Source: Escherichia coli
GTDB taxonomy: Bacteria; Pseudomonadota; Gammaproteobacteria; Enterobacterales; Enterobacteriaceae
Reading direction: 5' to 3' (one strand)
DNA length: 64,000 nucleotides
NCBI RefSeq assembly: GCF_002854065.1
Contig: NZ_CP024147.1
Position 1 is the first letter of the stretch, and each line of letters begins with the position of its first letter. A model generated the notes under the pieces. That model was not told where the DNA came from. It searched no databases and saw nothing but the letters and a program-made list of their open reading frames with translations. A program made the position numbers and the translations under genes. Positions 1 to 64,000 of this stretch are shown piece by piece.

Positions 1-451
1 CGGTGGTACGGTATGTCATGAAGACATCTTTCTGACTCCAGGTATCGCCACCAAATTCTGGCAACATATCAGTCCATGAACCAATGTCATAGCCGACACC
101 GTAGTTACGGCCATAGTCCAGAGAGCCAAATTCACTAATTTTTAAACCAGCATAGGCCAGACGGGTCTTGTTGCCGCGCGAGCCGTTGGCTTCATCGTTA
201 TAGCCTTTAAAATCATATTCCCAGTGACCAAAACCAATCATTTGATCATTGATTTGCGTTTCTCCTTTAAAGCCGAGACGGGCATAAGTTTTATCACCAT
301 CGTCACGCTTATCATCAGTAAAATAACGTAGAGCGGTAACCTTGCCATAAAGGTCGAGTTTATTACCATCCTTGTTATAGACTTCGGCAGCGTGTGCTAC
401 GTTCGCAGCTAACAAACCAGTTACAACCACCGCAACTATTTTTAATTTCAT
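1..451 (-). CDS. Outer-membrane porin of the OmpC/OmpN family, N-terminal ~150 codons; the gene runs off the window start
   Basis: Minus-strand translation from the ATG at 451 gives [38 protein letters not shown]...LDYGRNYGV...PEFGGDTW with no stop down to position 1. This is a typical porin signal peptide and first beta-strands. It is absent from the ORF track only because it has no stop inside the window. Confidence 0.6.
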
Positions 452-679
452 TTAACAGAATCCTTTTAATTATCGTTAAACGTATTTTCTAAACGAATTT
501 TAAACGGCGTCATTTATAAACGACATACTGTTTTTAAATTAGAATGGTGATTAAAAACAATGAGAAAAATAGATGAAATAATATTATTTATCGATATGTG
601 ATCGAAGTCTAAATGAGATATAAGGTGAATTACTGGTATTTGAAATTTATTTTTTAATATTGTCGGAGTTTATCTGATT

Positions 680-706
680 AATTGCCGGGCCGTAGACCCG
701 GCAATT
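680..706. terminator. Perfect 10-bp-stem hairpin immediately downstream of the yddG stop; possible terminator
   Basis: aattgccggg / cccggcaatt inverted repeat with a 7-nt loop, followed on the plus strand by a T-rich stretch. Lies between the convergent ends of yddG and the porin promoter region. Confidence 0.3.
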
Positions 707-709
707 ATT

Positions 710-1591
710 TTAGCCACGACGTGTCGCCAGCCAGCAGAGCAGGGAACCGCCGCAGACCATCAGCGCGCCTTGCCAGAACGAGAACGACAGCGGGGCGCTG
801 AGCAGCACGGCTGCAAGCGCTGAGGAAAGTACGGGCGTAAAATACGAACCTACCGCCATAATGGTGACGTTGCCATGCAATATACCGACATTCCATGCAG
901 CATAAGCAAATCCTAAGGTAAATGCCGCAGAGATGAGTTTAATTATGACGGGCATGCTAAATACCATTTCTGGTTGTGGCGTGAGAAAATAGTAAACCCA
1001 CAGACTTGCTCCCGTTAGCAGGACAAAAACGGTAATTCCGTTAAATCCGCGTGCGTATTTATTCGTTACTGTGCAGTAGGCTGCCCAGATAAACGCACCA
1101 ATGAACGCCAGGAAATAACTCAATGGGCTGGTGGTGATATTATTGATGATTTCATCATAATGTAACCCATTGTCACCGCCTAACACCCAGCAGACGCCGA
1201 CGAGGGCTAATAATAATCCTGGTACAATCAGCCAGTTGGTTTTCTGACCATTAAACAGAATGGCAAAGAGAATTGTCAGGCTGGGCCACAGATAGTTCAC
1301 CATACCCACTTCAATCGCCTGATGACGGGTCGCCGCATACCCTAAGGAAAGCGCCAGACAGATTTCATAGCTGACGAATAACAGACTCCCGGCGAGTAAA
1401 TAGCCTTTCGGGATTTGCCGAATACGCGGAAATCCAACCGTGAAGATTAACAGCAGCCCGCTTAATGAATAGATAGCAGCTGCGCCACCGACCGGGCCGA
1501 GCCCCTCACTGACACCGCGAATCAATCCTACCATCGTGCTCCACAGGACGATCGCTATTAGCCCTATGAGCGTTGCTTTTTGTCGTGTCAT
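710..1591 (-). CDS. yddG: Aromatic amino acid / metabolite exporter, DMT (EamA) family
   Basis: 293-aa ORF, strongly hydrophobic with about 10 predicted TM segments; position divergent from fdnG as in K-12. Confidence 0.85.
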   Translation of the reverse strand: MTRQKATLIGLIAIVLWSTMVGLIRGVSEGLGPVGGAAAIYSLSGLLLIFTVGFPRIRQIPKGYLLAGSLLFVSYEICLALSLGYAATRHQAIEVGMVNYLWPSLTILFAILFNGQKTNWLIVPGLLLALVGVCWVLGGDNGLHYDEIINNITTSPLSYFLAFIGAFIWAAYCTVTNKYARGFNGITVFVLLTGASLWVYYFLTPQPEMVFSMPVIIKLISAAFTLGFAYAAWNVGILHGNVTIMAVGSYFTPVLSSALAAVLLSAPLSFSFWQGALMVCGGSLLCWLATRRG

Positions 1592-1744
1592 GCTCGCTGT
1601 TTTGTCTCTCTTGCCGTTAAAAATTAAGCTGAATTTTATAGCATTTTTTTAACTGGCCTGTCAGGCAGTGGTGCGTTTTTCTACCGCTATTGAGGTAGGT
1701 CAATTTGCGCAGGCGGATTATTTTGTGGCAAACACGTGTTCTTT

Positions 1745-1758
1745 TTGATTTCGCGCAA
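1745..1758 (+). promoter_or_regulatory. Putative FNR half-site-type box (TTGAT-N4-CGCAA) upstream of fdnG
   Basis: ttgatttcgcgcaa lies about 70 bp upstream of the fdnG ATG. fdnGHI is known to be anaerobically induced via FNR and NarL; the match to TTGAT-N4-ATCAA is partial. Confidence 0.3.
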
Positions 1759-61515: not shown

Positions 61516-61593
61516 TAGATTATCCTCGGCTTATGCGTTCTGTCTGTTCCTCTATACGTTCTCCATCATTCCCGGTAATAAGGTCATGCAAAT

Positions 61594-62547
61594 TTAACTA
61601 CGTAAAATCGCCGCTGCTGTGTCCTGATCGGTAACCAGTGCGTTGATATAACCGCCTTTCATTGCAGCGGCAATTGCTTCGGCTTTATTTTCTCCCCCTG
61701 CCACGCCAACCCGGACGGGTATGGTCTTCAGCGCGCTTAAAGGTAAACCAATCAGTTCGTTATGTATTTTAATATCCGTGACAGCGTCACCTTTTGCATC
61801 AAAAAAGTAGCCTAAAATGTCGCCAACCGCCCCTTTTCGGCCAATCATTAACTGTTCGCCCTGGCTGATATAACCGGAGCGAATGATCGTCGCGTCGTCT
61901 TGTTGACTCACGGCCCCAATGCCGACAATCGCCACATCCGCTGCTTGCGCGGCTAACAGAACATCTTTGACGCAATTTTCATTTTTTAGCGTACGGGCAA
62001 TGTCAGCGGAGGATGCCCGCAACGGAGCCGGAATAATATTCACACTGCACGCCGCGTTAAGCTGCCCGATACCCGTCATATAAGAACCGACGCCACCGGA
62101 GAGCGTGACCAGGCGAATTTGCTGTGACGAAATAAAACCACTTAAGCGTTGCAGCGTATTCATGGTTGCCTCGCCAAAACCAATCGCCAGCATCTGTTGT
62201 GGTTGAAGTAAACTCATCAACATATGCGCCGCGCCTATCCCCAGTCGCCCGCCGACATCAGCATCGGCAAGCCCAGGGATCACTCGGACATGTTGCAGCG
62301 AAAACTGACGACGTAATTGTGTTTCATATTCCAGACAGCCTTCAAAGCGAGAATTAATCTGCACGCGAATGATGCCGGACTGATGCCCTTTCTCCAGTAA
62401 TCGCGACACTTTCAAACGGGTCAGGCCGAGACGATCGCTGATCTCACTCTGGGTCAGCCCGTCGTGGTAGTAAAACCACGCGATCCGCGCGACCTGTTCT
62501 TCTTCACACATTCCCTGTTCTGAAATTACCGAATCGTTGATTGTCAT
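61594..62547 (-). CDS. lsrR: lsr operon repressor (SorC/DeoR family)
   Basis: 317-aa ORF with N-terminal HTH and sugar-phosphate binding domain. Confidence 0.9.
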
Positions 62548-62615
62548 AATTCATTCTTCACTTTGAACATATTTAAATCTTTAATGCAATTGTTCAGTTC
62601 TTGCGCATTTATATC

Positions 62616-62631
62616 TGTGATGGCAACCACA
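62616..62631. promoter_or_regulatory. Putative CRP site (TGTGA-N6-CCACA) in the lsrR/lsrA divergent promoter region
   Basis: tgtgatggcaaccaca; a second weaker TGTGA-N6 site at about 62687..62702. The lsr operon is known to require cAMP-CRP. Confidence 0.4.
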
Positions 62632-62795
62632 GTTTGACTCTACGAGCATGAACAAACGCAACCGTGAAAATCAAAATAGCATAAATTGTGATCTATTCGT
62701 CGGAAATATGTGCAATGTCCACCTAAGGTTATGAACAAATTAAAAGCAGAAATACATTTGTTCAAAACTCACCTGCAAAACTGAACGGGGGAAAT

Positions 62796-64000
62796 ATGCA
62801 AACGAGTGATACCCGCGCGTTACCGCTACTTTGCGCCCGCTCGGTTTATAAACAGTATTCAGGGGTTAATGTCCTGAAAGGCATCGATTTTACGTTGCAC
62901 CAGGGGGAGGTCCACGCCCTGTTCGGCGGCAATGGTGCCGGTAAATCGACGTTAATGAAGATTATTGCCGGTATTACCCCTGCTGATAGCGGTACGCTGG
63001 AGATTGGGGGCAACAACTACGTCAGATTAACGCCAGTTCATGCTCATCAGCTGGGTATTTATCTCGTTCCCCAGGAACCGCTGCTTTTCCCAAGCCTGTC
63101 GATAAAAGAAAACATCCTGTTTGGGCTGGCAAAAAAACAGCTCTCCATGCAGAAAATGAAGAACTTGCTGGCGGCGCTGGGCTGCCAGTTTGATCTGCAT
63201 AGTCTGGCAGGATCGCTGGATGTCGCCGATCGCCAAATGGTGGAAATCCTCCGCGGGCTGATGCGCGACTCGCGGATTCTGATCCTCGATGAACCTACCG
63301 CCTCGCTTACCCCTGCGGAAACCGAACGCTTGTTTAGTCGCTTGCAAGAGCTGCTTGCTACTGGCGTGGGTATTGTTTTTATCTCGCATAAGCTGCCGGA
63401 AATTCGCCAGATTGCCGATCGAATTAGCGTGATGCGCGACGGAACCATCGCCTTAAGCGGCAAAACCAGCGAACTGTCTACCGACGACATTATTCAGGCC
63501 ATCACCCCAGCGGTACGGGAAAATCGCTCTCTGCCAGCCAAAAATTATGGCTGGAGTTACCTGGCAACCGCCCACAACATGCCGCAGGAACGTCGGTGCT
63601 GACACTGGAAAATCTGACTGGCGAAGGTTTCAGGAATGTCAGCCTGACGCTAAATGCCGGAGAAATTCTGGGTCTGGCTGGGCTGGTGGGTGCCGGACGC
63701 ACAGAACTGGCCGAGACGCTCTATGGTCTACGTACTTTGCGTGGCGGACGCATTATGCTGAATGATAAAGAGATCAATAGATTATCCACTGGAGAACGTT
63801 TACTGCGCGGTCTGGTTTATCTGCCGGAAGATCGCCAGTCATCCGGACTGAATCTCGATGCTTCGCTGGCCTGGAACGTCTGCGCCCTTACTCATAACCT
63901 TCGTGGATTCTGGGCGAAAACCGCGAAAGATAATGCCACCCTGGAACGTTATCGTCGGGCGCTGAATATTAAATATAACCAACCGGAACAAGCTGCACGG
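62796..64000 (+). pseudogene. lsrA: AI-2 ABC importer ATPase with a -1 frameshift at an A4 run (63520..63523); continues to the window end in the shifted frame
   Basis: Frame 0 encodes the first NBD (Walker [10 protein letters not shown]) and stops at 63600..63602 after …[19 protein letters not shown]…*. The other frame from about 63521 reads [67 protein letters not shown]…, i.e. the second NBD. Confidence 0.8.

Follow-up and report, generated by a model that had tools for sequence, protein, structure and literature searches.

How does a single stretch of an Escherichia coli chromosome come to hold so many damaged genes? The question is raised by 64,000 nucleotides of contig NZ_CP024147.1 (assembly GCF_002854065.1), analysed here at full length and called the window below. 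A description drawn up from the letters alone (the sequence-only reading) had listed three mobile-element insertions with intact target duplications, a nonsense codon in ddpA, a homopolymer frameshift in lsrA, a changed C terminus in ydeO and an older decay of a fimbrial operon, all on a K-12-like backbone. It had offered three origins for them: a pseudogene-accumulating lineage with active insertion sequences (ISs), a mutagenised or long-passaged laboratory strain, or sequencing errors. We conclude, with a probability of about 0.78, that the window comes from a natural, non-K-12 lineage of E. coli, that it represents the terminus region of the chromosome (yddG to lsrA), and that its lesions are of three ages. 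The oldest would be clade-wide, namely a deletion in the F9 fimbrial operon and a −1 frameshift in lsrA, both common to strains CUWW06 and 100416, with the lsrA allele in hundreds more assemblies. A stop codon in ddpA (Q263*), common to CUWW06 and dozens of draft assemblies, would mark a sub-clade. Two jumps of one IS1 variant and one insertion of the transposon Tn1722 would be at the level of the strain, or nearly so. The data show that all of these lesions are real and that their order of appearance follows a small tree of single-nucleotide polymorphisms (SNPs). The biology itself is ordinary and already known: familiar elements acting as they are known to act, in a region of common decay.

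To place the window, we compared its first 25 kb by megablast with a set of 5,426 complete genomes of E. coli. Only 11 records reached ≥99% identity, and the best match, at 100.0%, was CUWW06, a wastewater isolate from Thailand. No match to the whole window was found among the 5,426 complete RefSeq genomes; the closest, CUWW06, lacks all three insertions. The window differs from CUWW06 at 18 of 56,826 positions (0.3 SNPs/kb), from 100416, a Gambian stool isolate, at 27 of 54,264, and from K-12 MG1655 at 885 of 54,478 aligned positions (16 per kb). Hence the description of the backbone as K-12-like holds for gene order but not for sequence. Membership of the K-12 lineage is contradicted by the 16 SNPs/kb, by an autotransporter frame that is intact save for an IS1, and by F9 deletion endpoints other than those of K-12. 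Distances among the window strain, CUWW06 and 100416 amount to just 0.3–0.5 SNPs/kb. With K-12 as outgroup, the patterns of derived alleles give the tree ((window, CUWW06), 100416), with 5, 10 and 15 private SNPs for the window, CUWW06 and 100416, respectively. The window and CUWW06 share five derived sites, the ddpA stop among them.

The two point lesions are present as the sequence-only reading had reported them (Table 1), and both recur elsewhere. In the annotation of CUWW06, ddpA is flagged 'internal stop'. A search of the complete genomes with a 55-mer found the stop allele in CUWW06 only; 100416 has the wild-type base at this site. The four-A allele of lsrA was seen, among the same genomes, in CUWW06 and 100416 only, and lsrA is flagged 'frameshifted' in the annotation of the sister genomes. 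In a larger assembly collection, exact matches to the truncated DdpA product (262 amino acids) came from 55 contigs (83 index blocks) and those to truncated LsrA (268 amino acids) from 208 contigs (292 index blocks). The contigs examined come from a metagenome, from assemblies at NCBI (e.g. GCA_900449015.1) and ENA, and from public runs assembled by Logan. Because the two lesions occur in independent assemblies, they are inherited alleles of a natural clade, not sequencing errors, and they can serve as markers of that clade.

An artefact of sequencing or assembly, mainly behind the homopolymer frameshift and the single-base stop, was a reasonable suspicion, in that the lsrA lesion lies within a homopolymer and single-base lesions are the classic type of error. 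We give it next to no credence. Both alleles stand in independent complete genomes as well as on the contigs just counted, the five-A form of lsrA is present in over 2,000 other genomes, and the three insertions are intact at their ends and flanked by exact target duplications. For both point lesions, then, the idea of sequencing errors is refuted.

The decay of the fimbrial operon is likewise older than the strain, as had been supposed. In the window, only the first third of the usher gene (363 codons) remains, joined at 43783 to the tail of ydeS; the N-terminal domain of the chaperone is short of its first ∼43 positions, and the major subunit gene and yneL are missing. Among the complete genomes, the deletion junction at 43783 is common only to CUWW06 and 100416. 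Between the truncated chaperone and the dif-proximal sequence lie ∼101 bp (45427–45527) that, among the fetched loci, are present in CUWW06 and 100416 only; no match to them was found in K-12, in an intact-F9 strain or in a prophage from these loci.

Table 1. Features of the window, in window coordinates
Feature	Position	Strand	Details
ddpA pseudogene	15492..17042	-	codon 263 is TAG (bases 16254-16256), Gln in K-12 (Q263*)
IS1-A, 768 bp, in 3' end of ydeO	37530..38297	-	9-bp duplication GTGTTGTCC at 37521-37529 and 38298-38306
ydeO frame fused to IS1 end	38276..39037	-	residues 1-247 native; tail VMLPTY* in place of MNALAI*
F9 (ydeQRST-type) fimbrial remnant	42170..45629	-	ydeQ, ydeR intact; ydeS 3' fragment, usher and chaperone pieces
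dif, XerCD chromosome-dimer resolution site	45639..45666	-	perfect 28-mer, no integrated element
ECSE_1600-family autotransporter (orthologue of K-12 pseudogene yneO)	47549..53746	-	split by IS1-B after ~codon 175
IS1-B, 768 bp, in autotransporter	52454..53221	-	9-bp duplication AACCGTCCC at 52445-52453 and 53222-53230
Tn1722-type Tn3-family transposon, 5,640 bp	53840..59479	+	38-bp inverted repeats; TGTATT at 53834-53839 and 59480-59485
mcp of Tn1722	54029-55606	-	525 aa; PAS, HAMP, MCPsignal domains
tnpR of Tn1722, serine resolvase	55916-56476	+	Resolvase 135 bits, HTH_7 52 bits
tnpA of Tn1722, 988-aa Tn3-type transposase	56480-59446	+	DDE_Tnp_Tn3 514 bits
lsrA, -1 frameshift	62796..64000	+	A5 run to A4 at 63520-63523

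All three mobile-element insertions could be confirmed with their duplications, 9 bp for each of the two IS1 copies and 6 bp for Tn1722. The copies IS1-A and IS1-B are 100% identical to each other and the same as a CUWW06 copy annotated 'IS1-like element IS1B family transposase'. Both have the length of IS1, 768 bp, and its terminal inverted repeats (GGTGATGCTGCCAACTTACTGAT...), and their target duplications, GTGTTGTCC and AACCGTCCC, are exact on each side. The insA/insB' reading frames overlap (in IS1-B, 91 amino acids at 52891–53166 and 167 amino acids at 52469–52972, minus strand), and the annotation of the CUWW06 copy includes a programmed frameshift. No complete genome among the 5,426 had any of the insertion junctions (IS1-A, IS1-B, Tn1722); matches to the IS1 junctions that covered ≥80% of the query were joined pieces from IS1 copies at nearby, different positions. 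The junction of IS1-A with ydeO does occur in the draft assembly GCA_035821435.1, where 3,815 bp, of which 75 belong to IS1, match at 100% identity; this assembly also has the ddpA stop. The fusion product of the autotransporter with IS1 was recorded on a single contig.

The change at the C terminus of ydeO had been counted as a lesion of its own. The change is there, but it is the same event as the insertion of IS1-A and so had been counted twice. The last six residues of YdeO are swapped for five that are read from the IS1 end, giving a fusion protein identical to GenBank AUJ96036.1/WP_101969398.1. Its AraC-type helix-turn-helix domain (HTH_18) stops at residue 231, leaving the DNA-binding domain untouched. 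Because that domain ends before the altered tail, the protein may well still work.

With IS1-B taken out, the autotransporter gene would be intact, at 1,806 codons. Clade members with an identical LsrK have the intact 1,806-residue autotransporter 531 bp downstream, with neither Tn1722 nor IS1. In K-12, yneO is a frameshifted pseudogene, one difference being the run of C residues that corresponds to window position 49016. Unrelated strains have IS1, IS2 or Tn1722 within the autotransporter gene. In addition, unrelated E. coli have gained independent IS1 copies close to the same places, at distances of no more than a few hundred bases: near the 3' end of ydeO, in the 5' part of the autotransporter gene, and in the gap between ydeQ and ydeR. 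These nearby independent insertions hint at local hot spots for IS1.

The Tn1722-type element ends in 38-bp terminal inverted repeats (GGGGGAACCGCAGAATTCGGAAAAAATCGTACGCTAAG and GGGGAGCCCGCAGAATTCGGAAAAAATCGTACGCTAAG at the two ends), carries an mcp gene of the kind described in the literature as part of Tn1722, and accounts for a block of 66% GC in the composition profile. Many copies on plasmids and chromosomes match its interior (53847–59478, 5,632 bp) at 100% identity; such copies carry the annotation 'Tn3-like element TnAs1 family transposase', 'TnAs1 family' being the label that the NCBI Prokaryotic Genome Annotation Pipeline (PGAP) gives to this transposase. The element lies in the spacer between the two genes, 443 bp after the stop codon of lsrK and 94 bp upstream of where the autotransporter gene starts, at a target that is uninterrupted in K-12 and CUWW06. 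We considered and rejected an ancestral insertion shared with other genomes: the 'TnAs1 transposase' copies found in this region sit at different sites and are independent. The repeats that flank natural Tn1722 copies vary in length: a fox isolate has 6 bp (TTTATA), as does the window, two further copies have 5 bp, and CUPF12 seems to have 4 bp. In its mcp-tnpR-tnpA layout, its 38-bp repeats, a transposase with a QLxxLR motif and a site near dif/TerC in AT-rich DNA, the element resembles the known Tn1721/Tn1722. It differs from Tn1721 in that it is the 5.6-kb core without tet(A), has a 6-bp repeat, and represents a natural rather than a laboratory event.

Insertions that are private, or nearly so, are also what one would look for in a laboratory strain that had been chemically mutagenised or passaged for long and had gained its lesions in culture. 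All five SNPs private to the window are nonsynonymous, and all five change GC to AT. Several observations make such an origin improbable. The ddpA, lsrA and F9 lesions are older than the strain and occur in isolates from Thai wastewater and Gambian stool and in many sequencing runs. The wild sister CUWW06 has twice as many private SNPs as the window (10 versus 5, with 15 in 100416) and the same mutational spectrum, with a similar GC-to-AT bias on the two private branches. All but one of the 14 coding differences that separate the window from CUWW06 are nonsynonymous (13), spread over both branches. Finally, the ydeO::IS1 junction is shared with the independent draft GCA_035821435.1. The excess of nonsynonymous and GC-to-AT changes fits a very recent divergence, on which purifying selection has not yet acted. 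These data argue against the laboratory origin that the sequence-only reading had put forward, and neither K-12, nor a damaged laboratory strain, nor a poor assembly would be a fitting label for the window.

How, then, did the young insertions arise in this natural lineage? In the interval studied, each of the three closely related strains has IS1 at sites of its own: in the window strain, the 3' end of ydeO and the autotransporter gene; in CUWW06, the gap between ydeQ and ydeR, and ydeE just beyond the window; in 100416, yddA and a deletion at which IS1 has taken the place of the 5' part of the autotransporter gene together with the 3' end of lsrK. CUWW06 has at least 39 IS1 matches, compared to a species median of 11 places per genome, or ∼10 copies after a flank match is set aside. 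Given different IS1 sites in near-identical strains and the high IS1 load of CUWW06, IS1 is evidently active in the lineage. Private to the window are three insertions versus five SNPs, and the data show a rate of IS1 movement in this lineage that is about equal to that of point substitution. With at least 40 IS1 copies in 4.65 Mb, ∼0.55 would be expected per 64 kb, and the two in the window, with a probability of about 0.1, are nothing out of the ordinary for this lineage; for a median E. coli, two per window would be unusual, with a probability of about 0.007. The pattern is like that of IS1 proliferation in E. coli lineages, of which Shigella is the extreme case, with a 768-bp IS1, 9-bp duplications, identical copies at different sites in near-identical strains, and gene inactivation by insertion and, in 100416, by adjacent deletion.

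This likeness brings up a reductive evolution of the Shigella kind, in which ISs expand genome-wide and pseudogenes accumulate in mass after a change of niche. The IS1 matches of CUWW06, its small genome of 4.65 Mb and the five damaged loci of the window are all in keeping with such a process. For comparison, E. coli genomes normally have roughly 100–250 pseudogenes as counted by PGAP, and Shigella typically has several hundred ISs. Four 50-kb control windows of CUWW06 (200 kb) hold just two IS1 copies and about two to three damaged host genes, the acid-resistance, formate dehydrogenase, dos and gad genes of the window are intact, and the relatives come from varied sources that include wastewater and human stool. 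The copy number in the sister (≥39) is moderate and its control regions are largely intact, which does not suggest a reduction on the scale of Shigella. We therefore consider the Shigella-like course unlikely to nearly the same degree as a laboratory origin, if marginally less so. Of the suggestion that this is an IS-active, pseudogene-accumulating lineage, the first half stands, with different IS1 insertions in each strain; the second, taken in the Shigella sense, is not supported by the controls from the sister genome, which are nearly clean.

The location of the window bears on the clustering of its lesions. It contains dif and, judging from CUWW06, a Tus-binding site of the TerC type (in the yneE–uxaB intergenic region) would follow ∼6.5 kb to the right of the window, which thus forms the core of the replication-terminus region. 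The lesion density noted from the sequence is indeed high. Five damaged loci occur in ∼57 kb of backbone, which lies above the density in the four CUWW06 control windows (Poisson P about 0.004 or less). A purely regional effect would mean that any E. coli is this lesion-dense around dif/TerC and that the lineage is not special. K-12 itself has four to five lesions of its own in the interval, the genes concerned also harbour IS1, IS2 or Tn1721/Tn1722 in unrelated strains, and filamentous phages integrate at dif. The lesions of K-12 are all different from those of the window: yddJ, a porin fragment (yddL), loss of a higB-like toxin gene, the ydeT/yneL deletion in F9, and the frameshifted yneO. 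In this respect the pseudogenes of MG1655 offer a close parallel, with the same neighbourhood and the same decayed operons (F9 fimbriae, ECSE_1600 autotransporter). K-12 keeps the C-terminal part of the usher and a frameshifted autotransporter gene, whereas the window keeps the N-terminal part of the usher and has an IS1 in an otherwise intact autotransporter gene; in K-12, unlike the window, ddpA and lsrA are intact.

Since K-12 has lesions of its own here, the clustering is largely a property of a terminus stretch of dispensable genes, plus IS1 activity across the lineage. As a complete explanation, however, the regional effect is improbable, even if it is the least improbable of the alternatives. 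Three near-identical strains have each gained a different IS1 in this interval, the sister's IS1 load is at least ∼4 times the species median, and IS1 also disrupts genes in the control windows. Given this spread and this load, lineage-wide IS1 activity contributes as well. For the natural lineage that we favour, three causes of clustering may be envisaged: dispensable accessory genes would be under weak selection, the lineage would supply many IS1 copies, and a Tn1721-type transposase would be drawn to the zone where clockwise forks terminate, through an interaction of TnpA with DnaN.

Several points weigh against our interpretation of a natural lineage with lesions of three ages. The lesion-density controls are four 50-kb windows of one genome, two of them rich in essential genes. 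The window strain's IS1 count and pseudogene load are inferred from those of the sister CUWW06. The enrichment of IS1 near the terminus is not significant (six independent insertions in ∼200 kb across the three strains versus two in the 200 kb of controls), and we claim none. The 55-mer search for the ddpA stop is blind to genomes with an additional SNP close by. The five private SNPs are compatible with very recent neutral change but also with laboratory passage. Lastly, Tn1722 is flanked by a repeat of 6 bp (TGTATT), whereas a 5-bp target duplication is called characteristic for Tn1721/Tn1722 (PMC11417375). We tried a 5-bp duplication and rejected it, as it was unable to fit both ends. The 6-bp repeat is a minor deviation, the target being a clean duplication of an otherwise uninterrupted sequence.

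The reference genomes whose identity with the window might have reduced its lesions to common ancestral alleles do exist for ddpA, lsrA and F9, within a small clade, but not for the three insertions. This leaves the question of why Tn1722 should have landed where it did, ∼8 kb from dif and ∼11 kb from the position of TerC, in flanks of 30% GC. In a recent study, a QLxxLR motif (Q54, L55, R59) was found to mediate the binding of Tn1721 TnpA to DnaN, the sliding clamp, and all three recovered chromosomal insertions of Tn1721 lay in ∼25 kb near terC, where clockwise forks terminate (Tang et al., Nucleic Acids Research (NAR) 2024; PMC11417375). The TnpA encoded in the window has QLCLLR at residues 54–59, matching the published residues.

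For a sample without bias of location, we took the 60 matches that tied at 100% identity to the Tn1722 interior. Their 23 chromosomal records represent ∼16 distinct sites, 9–10 of which fall within 1.49–1.61 Mb of the K-12 map, or 2.6% of the chromosome. The sites in this unbiased list are ydcF, trg, ydcK, yddE (two strains), yddA, the F9 usher gene, the autotransporter gene, the spacer between lsrK and the autotransporter gene, and lsrK. Searches biased towards the region added Tn1721/Tn1722 sites in lsrD, tam, the autotransporter gene and tehA. Counting all natural copies, the autotransporter gene was struck at least twice and the lsrK-autotransporter spacer twice. It appears probable, at somewhat better than even odds, that natural Tn1721/Tn1722 insertions, the one in the window included, are strongly concentrated in ∼120 kb just upstream of TerC (K-12 1.49–1.61 Mb). 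If true, this would confirm on the scale of populations the targeting to termination that was inferred in 2024 from three laboratory events, and would suggest a target zone that is wider and one-sided. Complete genomes hold enough independent Tn1721/Tn1722 insertions for a population-scale test of terminus targeting by way of the DnaN clamp. Since tet(A) and KPC resistance genes are spread by the Tn3 family, knowledge of its chromosomal landing sites is also of practical value.

We also asked whether Tn1722 has a uniform orientation, or one that flips at dif, as Tn7 does with TnsE, and rejected both: the copies in ST540 and 13P460A are opposite to that of the window. Five Tn1722 insertions have the orientation of the window copy, one of them left of dif.

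With respect to lsrA, the frameshift falls in the linker between two ATP-binding domains. The first open reading frame spans 62796–63602 and encodes 268 amino acids rather than 511. A second open frame begins at a GTG at 63596, with AGGA just before it, and its start coincides with that of the second ATP-binding domain. Gene callers accordingly give products of 268 and 244 amino acids, each with an ABC_tran domain. The split allele is found on more than 200 contigs in which the other lsr genes are intact. Judging from its sequence, split lsrA may be a working gene in two halves, which would explain its persistence in more than 200 assemblies.

Gene order in the window, following the annotation of CUWW06 and K-12 MG1655, begins with yddG, fdnGHI, a higBA-like pair, adhP, maeA, sra, bdm, osmC, ddpFDCBAX and dosPC. 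It continues with digH, gadCB, pqqL, yddBA, ydeMN, ydeO, safA, ydeP, the F9 fimbrial remnant and dif, and ends with hipAB, the ECSE_1600-family autotransporter gene (yneO in K-12), lsrKR and the start of lsrA. The remaining K-12 orthologues are all full-length reading frames, those for acid resistance, formate dehydrogenase, dos and gad among them. An apparent stop within the reading frame of fdnG lies at what we take to be the expected selenocysteine UGA codon.

Whereas the dif site of the window is empty and perfect, CUWW06 and 100416 have different filamentous (Inovirus-type) prophages exactly at dif, each as two tandem copies. These prophages encode a replication protein (II), a Zot-like protein and a secretin, and are like the known dif-integrating filamentous phages (CTX-phi type), which use XerCD recombination. 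At 6925–7203, a toxin gene of the RelE/ParE family (HigB-like) adjoins yddM, which encodes a HigA-family antitoxin; K-12 lacks ∼420 bp here and has the antitoxin only. Relative to K-12, there is a 12-bp insertion between dosC and digH (21964–21975), a tandem repeat of GTGTGGTTAATT.

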